64,000 nt of DNA from an uncultured delta proteobacterium (GTDB lineage Bacteria; Desulfobacterota; Binatia; Binatales; Binataceae). The stretch is from contig CAWJET010000001.1 in assembly GCA_963842085.1 (NCBI GenBank), forward strand, positions 1,504,001-1,568,000, written 5' to 3'. The position numbers and the translations under genes are program-made. The notes below the pieces were generated by a model, which saw nothing but the letters and a program-made list of their open reading frames with translations, searched no databases and was not told where the DNA came from. Below, in pieces: positions 7,965 to 64,000 of the stretch. Position 1 is the first letter of the stretch, and every line of letters starts with the position of its first letter.

Positions 7965-8999
7965 CTACGCCGTTGCTGCACTCCTTGCCGGTTCCGCGCG
8001 GAGTGCGGTCAGTTCGCGGCTGGCGCGCGGCAGGAACACCACTCCGATCAGTGCGTTGCACAGCATGAACGTCAGTTGTGCCGCCAGACTGTAGGCGACG
8101 ATCTTCGCCGCCGACGCGTTGCTCGAGAAGAACAGCAGCCACGCCGCCTGACTGGTCCCCAGATGAGCCACCGCAATCGGCAGCGCGGCGGCCAGGAATA
8201 CCAGCGGCAGAAACAGCATCAGCTTTGCGAACGGGATCGCGATTCCGTACAGCGCCAGCGCGTAGTATTGCGCGACGACCGACGCGAGGAACGTCGGCGC
8301 CTTGATCGCCAGCACTGCCAGGTAGTCGAGCGGACGCGCCTGGATGAACGTCGCCAGCAATGCGCCCGCCCTTCCCGTCTCGACCCAGTTGCGAATCGCC
8401 GCGCTGCGCCGCGCAATCGCGAAGAAAATCATGATTCCGGCGAGCAATGCCCATGCCGCGATATACACGATGCGAAGTATTGCAACGATTTTTATCTGCG
8501 CGTCGCCAACCGGCGTGTAGAAGATTACCCCGAGCGTCGAGAACAGAAAGAGTTGGTAAATCTCGAGCAGCGCGATGAACAGCACCGAGCTGAGCGCGCT
8601 CAGGAAGCTGACTCCGGCCTTGCGATGCAGATAATACGCTACGCCGCCCTGCGCGAGGCTCGTGTTGATCAGCGCCAGCACGTACATGCTCGCGCGTATC
8701 GGTAATATGTCGCCGTACCGCATCCGCGCGTTGAAGCGCCGCACCACCCAGGTCAGACACGCCGAATCGATCGCGCAGTAAAACAGGGAGTACGGCATGA
8801 ACACCGCCAGGAACTCGAGCACCGGCACTTGCGACAGCGCTTGCTCGACTTTGCGGATCGGGATGCGCCAGAAGATCAGCGCGAATATAGCGATGGTCCC
8901 GAGATACGGAATCGCCTTGCGCCACAGCGGCGTCGCGCGCGGTGCCGGAACTGCATCGCCTGTCGCGGCGCTCGAGTCGGGGCTCGGCCCGGCGCTCAT
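7965..8999 (-). CDS. Lysylphosphatidylglycerol-synthase-like TM domain (flippase-like) membrane protein
   Basis: Many hydrophobic segments; LPIAVAHLGTSQAAW motif typical of YbhN/UPF0104-like proteins. Confidence 0.75.
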   Translation of the reverse strand: MSAGPSPDSSAATGDAVPAPRATPLWRKAIPYLGTIAIFALIFWRIPIRKVEQALSQVPVLEFLAVFMPYSLFYCAIDSACLTWVVRRFNARMRYGDILPIRASMYVLALINTSLAQGGVAYYLHRKAGVSFLSALSSVLFIALLEIYQLFLFSTLGVIFYTPVGDAQIKIVAILRIVYIAAWALLAGIMIFFAIARRSAAIRNWVETGRAGALLATFIQARPLDYLAVLAIKAPTFLASVVAQYYALALYGIAIPFAKLMLFLPLVFLAAALPIAVAHLGTSQAAWLLFFSSNASAAKIVAYSLAAQLTFMLCNALIGVVFLPRASRELTALRAEPARSAATA

Positions 9000-55021: not shown

Positions 55022-56599
55022 TTATGGCGTGAACGCATAGATCCGACCGTCGCCAGCGATGAAGAGATGTCCGTCGGTGGCCACAATGGTGACAAAGTGA
55101 CGCAGCCCCTCCATCGCATCGCTCGGACCTCCGCCTGTGAACACCGGCTCGCCGCTATCGCCCCGGAAGCCATGCAGGCGGCCGTCGCCTTCCGCCCCGA
55201 CCATCCAGACGATCGGATTTAGACCGTCGCCGGTCGTGGTCACGATTGGGGACCCGCGCCCGTAGACCGATCCGCACCATGCCGTGGAGATCATGGGCGA
55301 AGGATGGGTCCGGATCTTGAGCACGGTCAGACCAGGATTAGATAAACTCGATAACGAATCTCGCAGCCGCTCAAATATTCCGTTGGCGCAGCCGCTCCCC
55401 TGGCCCTCGAAGGCGACCAACGCGCTGCCATCGGAAGCGGTGTAGACGGCAGGGGCGGTGATGATCGGGCCACGAGCCACTTTCTCCACGGCGAGCGCAC
55501 CGCCGATACCACCGAGATTGTCGCGATTGAGGAGATAGGCCTTGCCGTCCTTGCCGAGAGCCAGCACCAGGCGTGCTCCGCCGCTGCCCTCTCGCACGTC
55601 GATCGGGAGAGGATTAGCGCCACCGAGATCCTCGTCGTAATCGTCGAGGGTCTTCCAGTCGGCGGGCGCGAAGAAATCACGGGGGCTCGTCGGACCCTTG
55701 AGATCGGGGCCGAGCCGGATGACGGCCTCACCATCGGCCCAGTCGTTGGCGTCCTTGGTGTTGCCGGTGGCGACGAACAGCGAGCTCCCGTCGTAACTGA
55801 TGCCGCCGGGCGCCCACACGCCACCGCCTGCGGCACGCGTGGTCCAAGCCGCGATCGTGCGGGGATCCTCGAGGCCTATCCCCACGACCCAGCCATGATA
55901 CGGCCCGCAGTCACCAAAGTGCCCGCCATACGGAATGAAGAGCATACGGTCGGCAATCGCCAGCGCACCGCGCTGGTTTTGCAAACGCGGCGTGAACGTG
56001 ATGCCGCGCGCCTTGAGGACTTGGGCGACGTTCACCGGGAAGCCGGGGAGGACCGAGCCATCGTCGACCGCCAGGCCGAACACCAGATGTTGCGGACCCG
56101 AACCGTCCTCTGCATCGGCCATCGCATCGAGGTAGATTGCGCCTTTGACGTCGTCGAGCACCGGCGTTCCAGTGACCCCGAGCGGGCTGATGTTGCCACA
56201 GGGCAGCGCCGACTGCGCAACGGGGCGCCCAAGTGATTTTCGCCACACCACCTTCCCGGAGCGCGCGTCCAGAGCGTAGACGACGTCGTCCTCGGTCGCG
56301 ACCAGCAGAAGCTGCCGATTGGTTTTCGGCGATTGCCAGAACAGCGGCTGGGCGTATACGTGTCCGTCAATGCGACCGTCGAAGGCAGGGTCGGAATGAA
56401 TTCCGCCCGCGCGCTCCCAGGTGAGACCAGGCATGACATAGGTTCCGCTCCGGCTCGGTGCGCCGTGATAGTTCACGACCGATTGAGCACGCGCATCGAG
56501 GCCGGGCAGGAGAGCCGTCCCAATCGCGAGAACGAGCCAGACAGCAAAGCGACACCACAAATGGCTTTGCTCTGTAAATTTCGGTCGTTCCGTCTTCAC
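55022..56599 (-). CDS. Secreted PQQ-like beta-propeller repeat protein
   Basis: Signal peptide; VYAQPL, VYALDARSGKVVW, GVTGTPV, GGVWAPGG, VATGN, GKDGKAYLL. Confidence 0.85.
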   Translation of the reverse strand: MKTERPKFTEQSHLWCRFAVWLVLAIGTALLPGLDARAQSVVNYHGAPSRSGTYVMPGLTWERAGGIHSDPAFDGRIDGHVYAQPLFWQSPKTNRQLLLVATEDDVVYALDARSGKVVWRKSLGRPVAQSALPCGNISPLGVTGTPVLDDVKGAIYLDAMADAEDGSGPQHLVFGLAVDDGSVLPGFPVNVAQVLKARGITFTPRLQNQRGALAIADRMLFIPYGGHFGDCGPYHGWVVGIGLEDPRTIAAWTTRAAGGGVWAPGGISYDGSSLFVATGNTKDANDWADGEAVIRLGPDLKGPTSPRDFFAPADWKTLDDYDEDLGGANPLPIDVREGSGGARLVLALGKDGKAYLLNRDNLGGIGGALAVEKVARGPIITAPAVYTASDGSALVAFEGQGSGCANGIFERLRDSLSSLSNPGLTVLKIRTHPSPMISTAWCGSVYGRGSPIVTTTGDGLNPIVWMVGAEGDGRLHGFRGDSGEPVFTGGGPSDAMEGLRHFVTIVATDGHLFIAGDGRIYAFTP

Positions 56600-56894: not shown

Positions 56895-57245
56895 TCAAAG
56901 ATCGCCGACGCGACGCAACTTTTCGCAAACCTCTCTCATCACCGTCTGAGGCAGCCGGCCGAGTGGCCTAAGCAACCGTCGGCGATCAATCGCGCGGGAC
57001 TGATCGACCATCACCTCGCAGACGCGAGCGTTGCCGGCCATCCTTGCCGGCAACTCGACGCGCAAGACGTTCTCTCCGGCGAGTCGGGTTGTGCAGGGAA
57101 GGACCCACGTGCTCGGACGGTCCGTCTCGTTCAGCAGGTCCGACTGGACCACGACGACCGGCCGAACCTCTCCCGGTTCGCTGCCTCGGCGAGGATTCAG
57201 GTCGGCCGACCAAAGCTCCCCGCGCCGCGGGGACCTGTCAGGCAT
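56895..57245 (-). CDS. PemK/MazF family toxin
   Basis: RGELWSADLNPRRGSEPGEVRPVVVVQ, LPCTT, DQSRAID. Confidence 0.92.
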   Translation of the reverse strand: MPDRSPRRGELWSADLNPRRGSEPGEVRPVVVVQSDLLNETDRPSTWVLPCTTRLAGENVLRVELPARMAGNARVCEVMVDQSRAIDRRRLLRPLGRLPQTVMREVCEKLRRVGDL

Positions 57246-57498
57246 CTTCGAGGCCCTCACCGACCAGCGGATCGAGCTCTTGCACCGTCCCGAGGGTCGA
57301 GGATCGCACTCGCACCGAGGCCTCCCGGAATTGCCGGCGAAGCTCCTCTCGAGAAACGGATTCCTCCAGTAGTCTAAGCGAGCGGCGAATAACTTCAGTG
57401 TTGGACCGCGCCTTGAGTAGCCGTCTCAATCGCCGGACTTGTGCGTGCTCCTTAGCTGCAAGGGTGAACGATGATTTTCCGATGGTATTGGATTTCAT
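57238..57498 (-). CDS. Cognate antitoxin (ribbon-helix-helix-like)
   Basis: Overlaps the toxin start; SNTEVIRRSLRLLE; acidic C-terminus. Confidence 0.75.
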   Translation of the reverse strand: MKSNTIGKSSFTLAAKEHAQVRRLRRLLKARSNTEVIRRSLRLLEESVSREELRRQFREASVRVRSSTLGTVQELDPLVGEGLEDA

Positions 57499-58062
57499 GC
57501 TTATCTCATACCTTGGATGCATCTTCAGCGCAAACGTTAGCCGGGCGACGGAACCGATCTCTCCTGCACAGTAAAGCGTGGTATCTATGGTTTCTGAGCT
57601 AGCGGATTCTCTAAAACCGATACCTCATGGAGATTCCTCCTTGACGGGCAAATGATGCGAGTTATGAACGATTGCGATGCCGGCGCTACAAAGGGATAAA
57701 GCGAGGGTGGCGCTTCCAGCGCTTCCAGCGCTTGCCGCTGTCCGGTGTTGTCTTGTTCGCTAGAACTGTATGAATTGTGGAGTGAGGATCGTTCCCACGC
57801 CGAGAGAACTATAGTGGTGGCCGGCTGCTGACTGAAGTCGTCGCCAGATCGCCGCGCGCCTAAAGATCAGCGCAGCACACGTCGCCTGCTTGGAAGTGTA
57901 AACAGTCCGCCAGCACGCGTTGGTTAAGCGTTATCGAAAACTCGAAAGTTCCGCCCGACACGCCTCCAAAAGAGAAGGCACGCGTTGGCGCCACCATGAG
58001 GGCGTGCGACCAAGCGTGCCTTCGGCTCGGAGGAGCGTTCGACCAATCTTTACAGCGGCTAG

Positions 58063-58503
58063 CTATTTTCCCACTGCGTGACGAACCGTGTTTAGAATAT
58101 AGATCAGATCGCGAGGCGACTGAACTTCTCCAAGAAGCGCCACCTGCGACAACATCTCCATCTCGGTGTTCGAGACGTTGTGGATACGTCGAAGTTGGTC
58201 GTTCTTTCGGAACTGGTCCCAGGCCGAAACTGAAGGTTCTGCCGTCTGCGGTTCTGCAGAGAGTAAAGCCTCCGTGTGCGGGTTGGCGAGAAAGAACAGT
58301 TCGCGCTTATCGAAGCCGAGAACTTCCGCCAGTCTCGTGACAATCTTGTCGGAGGGGTGGCGCTTGCCTGATTCCAAGTGTCCCACATATGGCGTCGAAG
58401 TCTTGATCCGCGAAGCGATTTCGTCCTGTGTGAGATCGAGCTCCCTTCGCCTTTTGCGTATCACGTCACCGAAATTCGGTTCCTTCGCACGAGCTTTTGA
58501 CAT
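58063..58503 (-). CDS. XRE-family transcriptional regulator
   Basis: IRKRRRELDLTQDEIA...YVGHLESGKRHPS; GGAG RBS. Confidence 0.92.
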   Translation of the reverse strand: MSKARAKEPNFGDVIRKRRRELDLTQDEIASRIKTSTPYVGHLESGKRHPSDKIVTRLAEVLGFDKRELFFLANPHTEALLSAEPQTAEPSVSAWDQFRKNDQLRRIHNVSNTEMEMLSQVALLGEVQSPRDLIYILNTVRHAVGK

Positions 58504-59056
58504 CTCCGATTTACCTTTCGCGGCGCATGGCGCAGCGGCTGCTGTTACTGAATTGCTTGCTTCCGACACGGTGTGGGTTAATATCAAAGGGCTAAACAGG
58601 AATAAATAGGAATTGGCTAGCAACTATAGAACTCGTCGCTTATAGAGATTCGTCAGCTTGTCGTTCATCTCTACAATATGTTGAATTTTCGGCAGTTTAG
58701 CCGGTTTGGAGATTAGCCATTCTTAACCAGCTTCTCTTTCGAATTCATCGATGAACATCTCTTTTGGATCGGCATCGAAATGGAATCTCGCCCCGCTAGT
58801 GCATTTGCATGGCCCAAACTGCGGGGCGAGAATCGTTCCTACGCCGAAAGAAGAAAAGCGCTGGCGGCCATACCTTGGTTTGAATCAGCGCGAGATTGCT
58901 GCACGGCTCAAAGTCAGCGCCGCAATGTCCGCTTATCTGGAAATGACCTTCCAGGGCAGGTACGCGTTGTTCCCGAAAATTAGCCGCCTTCGATGAAATC
59001 CGTTCCGTCGCCGATTTTGTTCGACCGCTTGACCGAAGTGTTAATGTGGTAGACGA

Positions 59057-61525
59057 ATGGCCCGGCGAAATTGCGCGACCTCTTCGAAGGCTATTGGCGA
59101 TGCTTGCGCCAGTGGCGGCTGGATCGTCATGATTTTAGCTGCGCTCGCGATTCTTTTCCCCGCCAAAGTTTGCATTGCAAGCGACGCCAGTAGCGCGGCC
59201 GTGCGCCGGCTCAAGCTGGGCGGCACAATCAAGGACGCGCTGGGAAGGCCAATCGTCGGCGCCGAAGTGCGCTTGGAAGAGGGCGGACGCGTGATTGCGC
59301 GCTCGCGCACCGACTCGGCGGGAGCATTTCAGTTTAAGCCGGTCGCACCGGGAACCTACGTCGTTATCGCGAACAAGCAGGGGTTCACGCGAACGCTTCA
59401 GACCGTCGTGTTGAGTTCCAGGAGAGCCAACCAGCTGCTGGTCGTGACGATGGAAGCGAAGGAGGCGCTGACGCTGCAGGTGATAACACAACGCCTCGAT
59501 CGCGCGCGCAACGATCTGTCCACCGAAATCGGCAGCACCGCCTATCGTTTCGATCAGCAGGCGATTCATCGGCTGCCCGAGGGACAGGACTCGACGCTCG
59601 CGCAGGTGCTGCAGCAGGCGCCGGGCGTGAGCCAGGACTCTTACGGGCAGGGACAGGGTCAGATTCACATACACGGGGAAAACGGCGGCGGCATCCAGTA
59701 CCGAATCAACGACGTGTTCCTGCCAGAGGCGGTGACCAGCTTCGGCGAGATCTTCAGCCCGCGCTTCGTGCGCAGCCTCACGCTGCTGACGGGAGTGCTG
59801 CCCGCGGAGATCGGATATCGCAACGAGGGCATCGTCGATATCCACTCGAAGGATGGATGCACCGACGGCGGTCCCGACAATGACAACGTCGAAATTTACG
59901 GCGGCCAGCGCGACACGGTCGAGCCGAGTTTCGAGATCGGCGGCTGCAAGGGGCGGTTCAGCTATTACGCAAGCGGCTTTTATTTGCGCGACAATCTCGG
60001 GCTGCAGGCGCCGGACGACAGCCCCGATCCAAACCATGACCATACTGAGCAGGGCCAGGGATTCGCATACCTGTCGTATCTTGTGAACTCCCAGACGCGG
60101 CTCTCGATGATGACGGGCGTGGCGGTGAACTCGTTCGAGGTTCCTCCCGCGCCGGGACTTGCGCAGCAGTTCACGCTCGCAGGCGTACCGACGTTTCCAT
60201 CCGCGGACGTCAAGGAAAACGAGCTGGAGCAGAATTACTATGGGATCCTCGCGTTGCAGGGCACGATTGGCGGGAACCTCAACTATCAGGTGGCGGGATT
60301 CAGCCGCTACTACGAGCTGAAGTTCAATCCCGATCCGATCGGCGACCTCATATACAACGGCGTCGCGGCAAGGATTCTCCACACAGGCTTCGTCAACGGA
60401 GTGCAGGAAGACACCAGCTACCGGCTCGATTCGCGTCACACGCTGCGCGCGGGATTCTACCTGAGTGGCGAGGCGATTGAGCTAGACGATCATGCGGAGA
60501 CGTTTCCCGCGATGGACGGAGTGCAGACCGGCACCACGCCGATTTCGATCGTCGACGACAACAATCAAATCGCGTGGCTGCTGGGAGTTTACGCGCAGGA
60601 CGAATGGCGGCCGCTCCCGGGCCTGACTGTTAATTTCGGCGTGCGCTGGGACTGGATGAGCGCGTTCGTGACGCAGAATCAGTGGAGCCCGCGGCTAGCA
60701 GTTGAATACGCAATGACGCGAGGGACCACGCTGCACGCGGGCTACGCGCGTTATTTCAAAGTGCCGCCGTTCGATCAGGTCGCGCTCGAGACGGTCGAGA
60801 AATTCGCCGACACCACCAACGCCGCGCCGGTCAACAGCGGCAACGACAAGATCGAGGCGGAAACCGACGACTACTTCGATGCCGGCATCCGGCAGCGCGT
60901 TGTAGATGGCCTCAACATCGGGGTGGACGGCTTTTACAAGTTTGGCCACGACCAGCTCGACCTCGCGCAACTTGCAGGCACGGTTGTGACCGCGCCGCTC
61001 AACTATCGCCAGAGCCGGGCGTGGGGGTCTGACTTCAGCCTGACCTTTGAGCGCAATGGGCTGTCCGCGTACTTGAATTTTTCCTACGCCGTGCTGCAAG
61101 CCAAATATATCAGCGCAGGTGCGTTCCTTGCCGACGACGCCGCGGAGATCGGTTACATCGCGAATCATTGGGTTACACTCGACGACAATCAGATGTTCGT
61201 CGGGTCGGGCGGAGCGTCGTACCAGCTATGGGGATTCCTGCTGACGGCCGACGGTATCTGCGGCAGCGGTTATCGGCGCGGTTTCGCGAACAGTGGCGAG
61301 CTGCCGCCGATACTGCAATTCAACGCGGCGATCGTGCGCAGCATGCGAATGCCGAAGCTCGGCGAGCTCGAGGGGCGGATCAGCATGATCAATGTCTTCG
61401 ATCACACGTATCAGATTCGCAATGGCAGCGGGATTGGCGTGTTTTCGCCGTCGTATGGCGCGCGCCGCGCTTTGTACGCCGGAATAAAAATTCCACTGGC
61501 GCCACTGGTCAAAGGATCGCCCTGA
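59057..61525 (+). CDS. TonB-dependent receptor with an N-terminal carboxypeptidase-regulatory-like domain
   Basis: GTIKDALGRPIVGAEV, plug QAPGVSQDSYGQ...QYRIN, YAQDEW, WSPRL, NVFDHTYQIRNGSGIGVF; start uncertain. Confidence 0.92.
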   Translation: MARRNCATSSKAIGDACASGGWIVMILAALAILFPAKVCIASDASSAAVRRLKLGGTIKDALGRPIVGAEVRLEEGGRVIARSRTDSAGAFQFKPVAPGTYVVIANKQGFTRTLQTVVLSSRRANQLLVVTMEAKEALTLQVITQRLDRARNDLSTEIGSTAYRFDQQAIHRLPEGQDSTLAQVLQQAPGVSQDSYGQGQGQIHIHGENGGGIQYRINDVFLPEAVTSFGEIFSPRFVRSLTLLTGVLPAEIGYRNEGIVDIHSKDGCTDGGPDNDNVEIYGGQRDTVEPSFEIGGCKGRFSYYASGFYLRDNLGLQAPDDSPDPNHDHTEQGQGFAYLSYLVNSQTRLSMMTGVAVNSFEVPPAPGLAQQFTLAGVPTFPSADVKENELEQNYYGILALQGTIGGNLNYQVAGFSRYYELKFNPDPIGDLIYNGVAARILHTGFVNGVQEDTSYRLDSRHTLRAGFYLSGEAIELDDHAETFPAMDGVQTGTTPISIVDDNNQIAWLLGVYAQDEWRPLPGLTVNFGVRWDWMSAFVTQNQWSPRLAVEYAMTRGTTLHAGYARYFKVPPFDQVALETVEKFADTTNAAPVNSGNDKIEAETDDYFDAGIRQRVVDGLNIGVDGFYKFGHDQLDLAQLAGTVVTAPLNYRQSRAWGSDFSLTFERNGLSAYLNFSYAVLQAKYISAGAFLADDAAEIGYIANHWVTLDDNQMFVGSGGASYQLWGFLLTADGICGSGYRRGFANSGELPPILQFNAAIVRSMRMPKLGELEGRISMINVFDHTYQIRNGSGIGVFSPSYGARRALYAGIKIPLAPLVKGSP

Positions 61526-61595
61526 CGTTGATGCACGTTGCCTCCGGTGAATACCATGGTGTACAAATTCTTGGGGGATTCGGAGGAGTTCAAAT

Positions 61596-61745
61596 ATGAG
61601 TGACTGGAAAAAGCCTGAGTTCGTCGAGATCCGGATGGACGCGGAAATCAACTGCTACAGTTCGGCCCTCGCTGACGATCCCAGGGTGCGAGTCCTGAAG
61701 CAGCCGTTGATTCGCGACAACTCGGAAACCAGCCAGGAATCCTAA
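61596..61745 (+). CDS. pqqA: PqqA-like coenzyme PQQ precursor peptide, 49 aa, absent from the ORF track
   Basis: GGAGGA RBS at 61582-61587; MSDWKKPEFVEIRMDAEINCYSSALADDPRVRVLKQPLIRDNSETSQES has the W-x-K-P leader and the ExxxY core (EINCY). Confidence 0.85.
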   Translation: MSDWKKPEFVEIRMDAEINCYSSALADDPRVRVLKQPLIRDNSETSQES

Positions 61746-62415
61746 GACCCGGCCGTCGTGCGGGTCCATATCCCAAGTCGAGACGATCGGATGCGGTCTC
61801 GGCTTCGAGGCATTTTTCGTCAGCGGCAAAGTGCCGAGCTACGTGAAAGCGCCGCCAGTCAATTACGACGGGGCTATTGCCAGTACAAACAGGGCTGCAA
61901 TTCACAAGAAATTCATATCGTACTGTTTTCTTTCTTCGCTGCGGACGCGTCCTCTTCTATGGCATATCACTAATCCTGATGAAAAGGCGTGCTTTTGGCA
62001 GCACTTGATTAAGGACATGCCGAGGCTCGCGGCGACCGCCTGCTTACGCTCGACGCCGACCAGTCCACGAACCCGATTTCATCGTAAAGATGTGGCAGGC
62101 CTAAACTGGCAGTGATATCGTGATCGCGTCTCGCAGCTTCGGGAGTTGGCTGCTGAATGTCGTGCCGCGGCAAATACTCTCGGTGCCGGTGCGCAAATAT
62201 GAATTCCGAGGTGCAGAACGAAATCCGGCTCAAAGCTTGCGCCAGCGGATTCATCATCGTCGACGTTCCGCTCACCTATTTCCGCGCGGCGCGGGCCGCT
62301 GCACGCGAGGCTCATCAGTTTCCGACTGAAAGTCCCGCGTTCTTCAGTACCCCCTTTGGAAAATCCGCGACTCGCTGGACTCCGCTGATTGTGAAGAACG
62401 CGGCTATTACCTGAG

Positions 62416-64000
62416 ATGCGTTTCGTGTCGTTCACGCGGTCAATCGCCGGGTTTAGTTTCGCATTGTTCCTGCTGTCCGCGTTTGCGCTGTTGATCTTGA
62501 TGGGCGGCGTCGTGACCGTCGCCTCTGCTCAAACCGGCGAAAGCTCAACGCCATCGGCGAAAGCCACCAAGAAAGCAAAAGCCCTTACGGTTTCGCCCAA
62601 GAAGCTTAACTTTGGTGAGCTTGCGCCCCTAAAGCCGAGCGCGCCCGCGACCGTAACGATTCACAATCCAAATTCAATTGCGATCGAGATCAGTTCGATA
62701 GATCCACAAGACCCGGAGTTCGTCCCCTCAGGCAACTGCGTGCGAAGCCTGGCAGCGGATGGCAACTGCGCCGTGTCGATCGTCTTCACGGCGTCATCCA
62801 ACGGCAAGAAATCGGCAAAGCTGACGATCGTCAACGGCGCCAGTAGCAAATCGCTCAGCGTTAGCATGACCGGCGAAGGCATCGGCACACCGATGCCGAG
62901 TCCAACCGCGACCGCCACGGCAACACCGACGGCGACCCCAACCGCGACAGCAAGTAGCGACCCGACCGCGACGGGCAGCGCGACACCGACCGCTACGGCG
63001 ACGCCAGTTTCCGGCGCGATCGTACTACCCATCGAAGTGATCGGTCCGCAGGGCGAGACGGGAACGCGAAGCTTCACGCTGACCTCGGCGCAAGCCAACA
63101 GCGCGGTGACGTTCTGGCTTCAGGGTAACCATCTGGGCTACGTACCCTCGCTGCAGAAGTTGCCGCCAGGTAAGGCCAGTATCTCGCTCAATGGCGGGCC
63201 GTGGCTGGCGCTCACGAACGAAACCGTGACGGTGCTGCCGCCAGGGGCAAATTACGAAGGTATCGATGGCGGCCTATTCGACACGGTCAAGGTCACCATC
63301 CCGATAAGCACGCTCGGATCGGTGGTTGCCGGCACGAACACGGTCAGCTTTAGGATGAACCAGACCGATGGTGTCACAACTGGCTTTCGAATTATCGCAT
63401 TCAACCTGCTTGCCTCGGACGGTTCGCAGATCATGCCGGCGGACCAGTTCGCCAATGACGACCCGAGTCTTTGGACGGCGCCGCTCAACGATTCCGCCGA
63501 CATCAGCGCGGGTCAAACGCTCTGGCATACCGCGACCCTCGCGCAATCGTCTTTGACGACCTCGACGATTAAGGCACACTGCGCCGATTGTCATGCCCAA
63601 GATGGGCGCGACCTGAAGTATTTCAATTACTCGAATTATTCAATTATTCAGCGCAGCCAATTCCACGGCCTGAGCCAGCTTCAGGGTGAGCAGATCGCGA
63701 GCTATATCCGCTCGGGCATCCCGAATGCGCCGGCGTTTTCCAGCTATGCACGGCCGTGGAACCCGCCCTATCAGCCTGGGCCGGGGTTGAACTCGCATTC
63801 GATCGCTGACTGGTCGGCTGGGGCTGGCATCCAATGGGTGCTGGACGATGATACACAAACACTCAACTATATATTCCCCAATGGGTATACCCCCGCGGCG
63901 ATACCAGCCACCGGCGCCATAGATAAGCGCGAAATTCCGGTGTTTCTGCCGATGCCAAGCTGGAATCAATGGCTGCCGACGGTCTCGCCGATGGATGCAT
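62416..64000 (+). CDS. Secreted modular protein: Ig-like (ASH/choice-of-anchor D) domain, PT/TA linker and c-type heme domain (runs off the window; absent from the ORF track)
   Basis: Manual translation: signal peptide MRFVSF...ASA; LTVSPKKLNFG...C..C.VSIVF; (PTAT)n linker; LPIEVIGP; CADCH at 63580-63594 followed by AQDGRDLKYFNYSN; RPWNPPYQPGPGL. Confidence 0.85.
   Translation, partial: MRFVSFTRSIAGFSFALFLLSAFALLILMGGVVTVASAQTGESSTPSAKATKKAKALTVSPKKLNFGELAPLKPSAPATVTIHNPNSIAIEISSIDPQDPEFVPSGNCVRSLAADGNCAVSIVFTASSNGKKSAKLTIVNGASSKSLSVSMTGEGIGTPMPSPTATATATPTATPTATASSDPTATGSATPTATATPVSGAIVLPIEVIGPQGETGTRSFTLTSAQANSAVTFWLQGNHLGYVPSLQKLPPGKASISLNGGPWLALTNETVTVLPPGANYEGIDGGLFDTVKVTIPISTLGSVVAGTNTVSFRMNQTDGVTTGFRIIAFNLLASDGSQIMPADQFANDDPSLWTAPLNDSADISAGQTLWHTATLAQSSLTTSTIKAHCADCHAQDGRDLKYFNYSNYSIIQRSQFHGLSQLQGEQIASYIRSGIPNAPAFSSYARPWNPPYQPGPGLNSHSIADWSAGAGIQWVLDDDTQTLNYIFPNGYTPAAIPATGAIDKREIPVFLPMPSWNQWLPTVSPMDA

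Follow-up and report, generated by a model that had tools for sequence, protein, structure and literature searches.

The locus and its pqqA gene

The stretch of DNA analysed here, hereafter the window, comprises 64,000 nucleotides (nt) of G000, a metagenome-assembled genome (MAG) of Candidatus Binatus (4.93 Mb in 2 contigs, completeness rating 100%), and corresponds to positions 1504001-1568000 of its contig 1 (C1:1504001-1568000). Towards its right-hand end the window carries an intact gene for a TonB-dependent receptor (P0002, 822 amino acids [aa]; 59057..61525, + strand) and, behind it, a 49-aa open reading frame (ORF; 61596..61745, +) that resembles PqqA, the precursor peptide of pyrroloquinoline quinone (PQQ). 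A first-pass annotation had described this ORF as an orphan, C-terminally extended PqqA and had proposed that it either forms, together with the receptor, a module coupling cofactor or metal uptake to precursor supply, or encodes a RiPP (a peptide made by the ribosome and post-translationally modified) with a different product.

The features that the first-pass annotation had reported for the ORF all read as claimed. The gap between the receptor stop codon and the ATG of pqqA is 70 nt, and a strong ribosome-binding site, i.e., the Shine-Dalgarno-like GGAGGAG, is directly readable at 61582..61588 (+). The peptide, MSDWKKPEF...EINCY..., has the leader WKKPEF (W4-K-K-P7) ahead of a Glu-x-x-x-Tyr core (E17-I-N-C-Y21), followed by a tail of 28 aa. 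The ORF matched the NCBIfam PqqA model TIGR02107 with 26.5 bits (cutoff 20 bits; residues 4-24), which settles a check that had been left to be made; the score with Pfam PF08042 was 18.9, slightly below the gathering score of 21.1. Judged from its sequence, the ORF is a genuine PqqA gene, a second copy in this genome and an ordinary precursor gene.

A conserved promoter-like block, TTGCCT-N-TGGTGTACAAA, is located 58 nt ahead of the pqqA ATG (61538..61567, +). Of 30 pqqA upstream regions, 23 contained the block TTGCCT-N-TGGTGTA(A/C)AAA 52-60 nt 5' of the ATG, as judged with a pattern that was set after viewing the alignment and with 5 of the 30 regions duplicating another genome in the set; it was present in 12 of 15 regions without a receptor upstream and in 11 of 15 with one. 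pqqA thus appears to have its own putative promoter irrespective of an upstream receptor, and both the block and the ribosome-binding site are intact at the window copy. No terminator-like site was found between the receptor gene and pqqA. A terminator-like hairpin at 61796-61811 was dropped as a candidate, as it lies inside a pqqB fragment and such sites numbered 3 as compared to a shuffle mean of 4.0.

The first-pass annotation had seen no pqqBCDE in the window. Searches of the window with the genome's own PqqB-E (tblastn) found no intact pqqB-E, and to this extent the statement stood; two pqqB remnants had been missed, however, and all other matches were chance matches. One remnant is the pqqB start (GTG + 13 nt; 61758..61773, +), which aligns to positions 8897-8912 of a second pqq locus of this genome (L010), where the start of an intact pqqB is found. 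The other is an internal pqqB fragment encoding PqqB residues 143-176 (61774..61876, +; blastn and tblastn), joined to the first after a deletion of 411 nt. The window pqqA is therefore followed by remnants of pqqB only and is not directly upstream of an intact pqqB.

Partial duplication of a receptor-pqqABCDE block

Searching the whole genome for pqqBCDE, as the first-pass annotation had advised, uncovered an intact pqqABCDE operon 301 kb from the window locus on the same 3.24-Mb contig, so that PqqD and PqqE are present. This locus has the gene order pqqA-B-C-D-E (ORFs with the expected Pfam domains): a second pqqA at C1:1866743, with a hidden Markov model score equal to that of the window copy, a pqqB that starts 12 nt behind this 49-aa pqqA, and a PqqE match of 506 bits at C1:1868838. 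A tblastn search of the genome found pqqB-E as single intact copies (C1:1866896-1869923). Two substitutions in the tail, A26T and I39S, distinguish the PqqA copies.

The two loci share considerably more than pqqA. A repeat that runs from the receptor 3' end across the intergenic region and pqqA into pqqB, of which it includes the first 16 nt (61385..61773, +), is 97.7% identical between them, with differences at 9 of 389 positions, and window positions 61775-61876 are 97.1% identical to an internal part of the operon's pqqB (blastn). In the opposite direction, the operon locus carries three deletion-riddled remnants of the window's receptor gene. The first of these, from the receptor start region, aligns at 86.6% identity (blastn; window 59036-59102 against L010 8187-8253) and defines the left edge of the duplicated segment (59036..59056, +), as homology starts 21 nt before the receptor start codon. 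Another corresponds to window 60267..60543 (+), with 97.1% identity and a 2-nt deletion at the operon locus. The deletions at the operon locus removed approx. 1.16 and 0.84 kb from the receptor gene, with short shared strings at the junctions. On the right, pqq homology stops at 61876. The window pqqA is therefore no orphan in the sense of the first-pass annotation, but the leftover of a partial block duplication, with a sister pqqABCDE in the genome and remnants on both sides.

Compared to the closest relatives, the window segments show only 81-90% identity (81-86% for the 61385-61773 repeat). As the two loci are 97% identical to each other, the copy arose within this lineage. The genes around the operon locus, i.e., a 2-oxoglutarate-Fe(II) oxygenase and a beta-lactamase-family gene upstream and a family III CoA-transferase and a 294-aa ORF downstream, are syntenic with the pqq loci of the related genomes G003, G007 and G012; G003 has the oxygenase, the beta-lactamase-family gene, the receptor and pqqABCDE, and G007 has the same order minus the receptor. 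The ORFs flanking the duplicated segment in the window had no match at the pqq loci of these three genomes. As the flanks of the operon locus are syntenic while those of the window locus are not, the window copy is the derived one.

When differences between the copies were polarised by the relatives (5' piece excluded), 17 of 20 columns were derived on the operon side and 2 on the window side, with 1 left unassigned. Within pqqA, the operon copy has the derived state at all three differing positions. The operon-side changes thus include 3 in pqqA and 2 in pqqB, both functional there; the receptor remnants could be expected to show such an excess, but for the two functional genes it is less obvious why they should. 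Within the 5' piece, four window-derived changes cluster at 59046-59049 in the motif GTTAATTCGCTAG, which relatives retain upstream of the receptor start; the altered motif may point to the loss of a regulatory site or to a mosaic origin.

Linkage of the receptor and pqq genes among relatives

The distribution of these genes was assessed in a genus sample of 47 genomes, G000 included, with cutoffs of 20 bits for TIGR02107, E<=1e-60 for PqqE and E<=1e-250 for receptor orthologues. The counts take in the unpublished genome G023 (pqqA and PqqE are each found in 19/46 genomes without it), and as the relatives are kin and not independent, they describe the sample and test no hypothesis. pqqA was found above the cutoff in 20/47 genomes and PqqE also in 20/47 (17 over the curated cutoff), with 19 genomes containing both. 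Receptor orthologues (76-86% identity) were detected in 8 genomes besides G000. Among these 9 receptor-bearing genomes, 8 encode PqqE, and in the ninth (G004) the receptor is located at a contig edge.

Of 23 pqqA loci in the genus, 7 have the receptor immediately 5' of pqqA (in one it is split over two frames); adjacency of receptor and pqqA, for which the first-pass annotation had wished to see evidence across relatives, is thus not unique to G000. We also compiled 26 receptor loci from Binataceae (61-86% identity), several from genomes of the genus sample and 3 ending at or <=0.5 kb from the receptor. pqq genes were found inside the 4-kb flank of 11 of these loci, with 8 showing the order receptor-pqqABCDE, 1 with pqqA 3 kb downstream, 1 divergent and 1 convergent. 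In a twelfth locus (G016), an aromatic-ring hydroxylase and a multicopper oxidase come after the receptor and pqqA follows 4.2 kb downstream of it. The ancestral Candidatus Binatus layout is best reconstructed as receptor-pqqA-pqqB-pqqC-pqqD-pqqE in one block.

Two long pqqA copies were found only in G000 among the genomes searched. The two pqqA matches in G001 were rejected as a second duplication, as they are contig ends that overlap by 141 nt at 100% identity and represent one locus. G051 encodes, besides a long PqqA, a short PqqA of 25 aa with an EINSY core and no tail on another contig (L031, G051:C27:82134-85196). The receptor and pqq genes are broken by frameshifts or stops in four MAG loci of relatives (L071, L074, L076 and L077), which may be sequencing errors or pseudogenes; "broken" genes of relatives (e.g., G054 with 1 TGA, G049 split) thus need careful reading.

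The C-terminal tail of PqqA

The 21 long PqqA peptides from genus loci are all 48-50 aa in length and share the pattern ...EINCYSSALADDPR(V)RVLKQP.IRD..SE..QES, and most of them are encoded in front of pqqB. A database search yielded 118 clusters at E<=0.01, many of which are named PqqA by JGI or NCBI. In an alignment of the query with 25 of the 118 clusters, picked toward the distant end, D15 to S23 were invariant in all 26 sequences, including C20, while the tail kept its length and not its sequence and was poorly conserved outside the genus. Among 22 genus sequences (1 from G023), the ratio of nonsynonymous to synonymous polymorphism (pN/pS) was 0.04 for codons 2-24 as compared to 0.38 for the tail. 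The tail is, as far as these patterns indicate, a loosely constrained, lineage-typical extension of a PqqA that feeds pqqBCDE.

The first-pass annotation had considered a RiPP with a different product because of the Cys beside the core Tyr and the follower-like tail. Both are standard in this lineage, and as the long, Cys-bearing form heads pqqBCDE there, a different product is not supported. A literature search, in which sources were available in part, returned no paper on the long PqqA form and none on a receptor in Binatota pqq loci.

The receptor and its possible ligand

P0002 has a signal-like N-terminus, a CarboxypepD_reg domain (PF13620), a plug (PF07715, 26.3 bits) and a 22-strand-type barrel (PF00593, TonB_dep_Rec_b-barrel; 89.9 bits). 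The first-pass annotation had related it to PqqU, the TonB-dependent PQQ importer, or to the import of lanthanides for XoxF-type enzymes. It did not reach the curated PqqU model, as no match of P0002 to NF041535 was found at E<=1; E. coli PqqU scores 1311.7 bits with this model, and the best match in the whole genome is another gene, with 47.7 bits. Other comparisons detected no relation between the two proteins beyond the generic barrel, which argues against a role in PQQ import. BLASTP gave 23% identity over a 198-aa part of the barrel, and hhalign aligned columns 481-619 of P0002 to 369-513 of PqqU (128 columns) with a probability of 44.6%. The PQQ-binding signature given for PqqU (Y/F/W99, R304 and R365) in the available part of PMC12124388 falls outside the aligned part. 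A phmmer search of the receptor against PDB sequences (E<=10) listed only receptors for enterobactin and colicin I, with PqqU absent, and an AlphaFold2 model (17-sequence alignment) had a mean predicted local distance difference test score of 50.5 and a predicted template modelling score of 0.39 and was too poor for a fold search. The lanthanide proposal found no support either, as no XoxF-type enzyme was found in the genome.

A paralogue of the receptor with 47% identity, present in most genomes of the genus, is located at C1:1439052 of G000 (L084, G000:C1:1433000-1447500) and is followed by exbB, exbD and a tonB-like gene. As this paralogue lies directly before exbB-exbD-tonB, the receptor family is a working TonB-dependent one. 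The near-restriction of the window receptor to pqq-positive genomes, together with its varied adjacency to pqq genes, suggests, as the most plausible guess at its ligand, PQQ or a PQQ-metal complex, and we put the chance that it imports one of these at just short of even. Against a link to PQQ, 12 of 38 genomes without a strong receptor match still encode PqqE.

Possible users of PQQ

We searched G000 for known quinoprotein families, as a loose first pass. No match over threshold was found for TIGR03075 and PF01011 (PQQ alcohol dehydrogenases), TIGR03074 (membrane glucose/quinate dehydrogenase) or PF07995 (soluble glucose dehydrogenase); the best TIGR03075 match had 22.5 bits and PF01011 had none. 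In the genus, matches resembling alcohol dehydrogenase were seen in 3/47 genomes, none over the cutoff, and soluble glucose dehydrogenase in 0/47. tblastn searches with the alcohol dehydrogenase-like proteins of three relatives (1 from G023) found none in G000, where their neighbouring gene is present with 91-95% identity. XoxF together with PQQ synthesis is described for nine Binatota genomes in PMC8262859, the available part of which does not cover the genomes studied here.

The first-pass annotation had also pointed to a PQQ-type propeller upstream of the receptor. The propeller is there (P0121, 525 aa; 55022-56599, - strand), but its PQQ-repeat or BamB-like matches are all below threshold (PF13360, 22.7 as compared to 27.6 bits; TIGR03075, 12.8 as compared to 480). 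P0121 was rejected as the missing quinoprotein: it groups with clusters named "PQQ-binding-like beta-propeller repeat", and its orthologues occur in G009 (pqq-negative), G013 and G046, with a broken one in G004. The occurrence of these orthologues does not track pqq, and P0121 is thus no sign of a PQQ context. Contig 2 encodes another PQQ_2 propeller, which was rejected as pqq-linked since it is found in 45/47 genus genomes and hence is a core gene.

PQQ would thus be made in these genomes without any of the known quinoprotein families searched, which raises the question of what it serves. One speculative and, in our view, doubtful answer is that PQQ in Candidatus Binatus is not primarily an enzyme cofactor but a secreted metal chelator or redox shuttle regained by the receptor as a PQQ-metal complex, or else that it serves an unrecognised quinoprotein family. 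If the former were true, the duplicated receptor-pqqA pair would keep the two parts limiting a PQQ-metal cycle.

Surroundings of the inserted segment

To the left of the inserted segment, the window contains an ORF for a MazF/PemK-type toxin with a small upstream ORF (56895-57522, -) and a gene of the XRE type with a helix-turn-helix domain (58063-58623, -). Both stretches have multiple copies with 70-81% identity elsewhere in the genome, and this area looks like a variable region. To the right, positions 61876-62299 resemble C2:1356681-1357111 (90.8% identity), an unannotated stretch beside a FecR-like gene. No "empty site" or insertion sequence element was found at the edges of the segment. 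Further right, a gene for a choice-of-anchor D domain protein (62416-63999, +; NF012200, 43.1 bits, just below the cutoff of 45) has two partial copies with approx. 95% identity at C1:1575668 and C1:1583125, i.e., 8-16 kb past the window end.

Origin and fate of the window copy

We consider it highly probable that a partial duplication of the receptor-pqqABCDE block, followed by complementary decay of the two copies, explains the pqqA in the window. In this scenario, the copied segment would begin approx. 20 nt ahead of the receptor start and extend at least as far as codon 176 of pqqB, and its new site, at a distance of 301 kb, would adjoin the MazF/PemK toxin-antitoxin pair and XRE-type genes. 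At the original site the receptor would have been lost through the two deletions of approx. 1.16 and 0.84 kb and the 2-nt deletion, with pqqABCDE left intact; at the new site, the receptor would have stayed intact and pqqB would have been destroyed, so that pqqA would survive at both. The window pqqA shows no sign of decay at the sequence level. Glu17 and Tyr21 of its product would be cross-linked by PqqE/PqqD and the peptide processed to PQQ. By analogy with the extra pqqA genes of methylotrophs, we lean towards the view that the window copy is expressed, whether transcription starts at its own promoter-like block or continues from the receptor gene, and that its product serves in trans as extra precursor for the genome's only PqqB-E set.

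Several observations weigh against this account or parts of it. One recent copying event does not account for the 86.6% identity of the 5' piece. The receptor of G013 lacks a pqqA behind it and is located approx. 100 kb from pqqABCDE, so the receptor needs no adjoining pqqA. At a divergence of approx. 2-3%, an ORF of 150 nt stays open by chance, and the intactness of the window pqqA is therefore no proof of selection. In the contigs assembled from four short-read soil runs (2 studies), the operon alleles at 61711 and 61742 were found in 4/4 runs and the window-type alleles in none, while the window-type allele at 61671 was found in 1/4. Phasing of alleles from these contigs was ruled out, as contigs drop minor variants and mix the alleles of both copies of a repeat; the exact alleles of the window pqqA thus rest on the assembly alone, and the scarcity of window-type alleles is not evidence of absence.

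These allele counts, together with the metagenomic source of the genome and the frameshifts in several related MAG loci, could be taken to suggest an assembly artefact or chimeric MAG, with loci from different strains or a mis-join. Such an artefact is very improbable, as both sets of junctions occur in the same short-read runs: contigs of all four hold the operon-locus joints 59099>60267 and 60543>61388 as well as bridges across 61385 and 61876 that match the window without a single difference, and both loci lie on one contig. Equally remote is the idea of a PqqA-like RiPP precursor whose product would differ by way of the Cys beside Tyr and the tail. The invariance of C20, the preservation of a tail of approx. 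28 aa across the clade and a tail pN/pS of 0.38, which indicates some constraint, are in line with it. Yet a peptide differing at two residues heads a canonical pqqABCDE, the long form before pqqB is the only TIGR02107 pqqA found in relatives (apart from the short extra copy in G051), the tail sequence is poorly conserved beyond the genus, and no maturase was found in the window, where tblastn with PqqB-E gave only chance matches.

More weight is due to the possibility that the window pqqA is a neutral hitch-hiker, i.e., a by-product of receptor relocation that remains open because it is small and recent and contributes nothing. The few differences between the copies, with which an open frame of 50 codons is expected by chance, the receptor of G013 that was kept without pqqA behind it, and the decay permitted in the adjoining pqqB are all consistent with this explanation. 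On the other hand, large deletions took pqqB from 13 nt past the pqqA stop and spared pqqA, its promoter-like block and its ribosome-binding site, and 0 of 3 pqqA substitutions fall on the window copy, although the numbers are small. Overall, we regard a neutral hitch-hiker as rather unlikely. Less probable still is a selected two-gene module as envisaged by the first-pass annotation, in which receptor and pqqA would be co-regulated and couple PQQ or metal uptake to precursor supply. In its favour, four different arrangements across Binataceae place receptor and pqq genes side by side, the receptor orthologue occurs in 8/20 pqqE-positive as compared to 1/27 pqqE-negative genus genomes, no terminator-like site separates the two window genes, and synteny of PqqU and pqq is reported for four Burkholderiales genomes (PMC12124388, in the part available). 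However, the conserved unit is the receptor with the whole operon rather than with pqqA, the two-gene state occurs in G000 only among the genomes searched, and the pqqA promoter-like block is present also without an upstream receptor. With remnants at both loci, the pair is the leftover of a partial duplication, and the module as proposed is not supported.

Interpreted as partial duplication with complementary decay, the locus is a clean, datable case of a copied operon fragment and shows how an "orphan" pqqA can arise. Second pqqA copies are already known from methylotrophs and the peptide itself is ordinary. The main interest of the locus lies in the link between pqq and a non-PqqU receptor in Binataceae and in the missing user of PQQ: in the Binatota, an uncultured soil phylum, a TonB-dependent receptor outside the curated PqqU model represents the ancestral, dispensable first gene of the pqq locus and is a candidate, open to testing, for a second, independent importer family for PQQ or PQQ-metal complexes.

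Comparison with known systems

That duplicated copies may degenerate in complementary ways is an established concept. The two loci of G000 resemble it in that each copy of the block kept a different subset of genes, and differ from it in that an operon fragment of a bacterium is concerned and the small gene pqqA remains duplicated.

Canonical PqqA peptides, for which the available part of PMC2294125 gives lengths of 23, 24, 29 and 39 aa (e.g., Klebsiella pneumoniae, 23 aa; Methylobacterium extorquens, 29 aa), have the same W-x-x-P leader and Glu-x-x-x-Tyr core as the window peptide. Further likenesses are the TIGR02107 match above the cutoff, the presence of PqqB-E in the genome and the sister copy directly before pqqB. 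Unlike the canonical peptides, the window PqqA has 49 aa (as compared to 23-39 aa in the available part of PMC2294125), a Cys before the Tyr and a hydrophilic tail of 28 aa, and its gene lies 301 kb from pqqB-E.

P0002 shares with PqqU (YncD), the TonB-dependent PQQ importer, a genomic tie to PQQ biosynthesis, for which recapture of secreted PQQ is the logic proposed in the accessible part of PMC12124388. It differs from PqqU in lacking a match to NF041535, in the identity of 23% over 198 aa and in its extra N-terminal CarboxypepD_reg domain.

The closest parallel to the window gene is found in methylotrophs. As far as the available part of PMC11317620 indicates, M. extorquens AM1 has the orphan genes pqqA2 and pqqA3, Methylovorus sp. 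MP688 has five pqqA genes, and PqqA supply is rate-determining. There, as in G000, extra pqqA genes lie away from the biosynthetic genes and presumably serve the same PqqB-E. In contrast to the methylotroph orphans, expression of the window copy is predicted, and its origin is visible in the partial operon duplication and in the pqqB and receptor remnants that it left behind.

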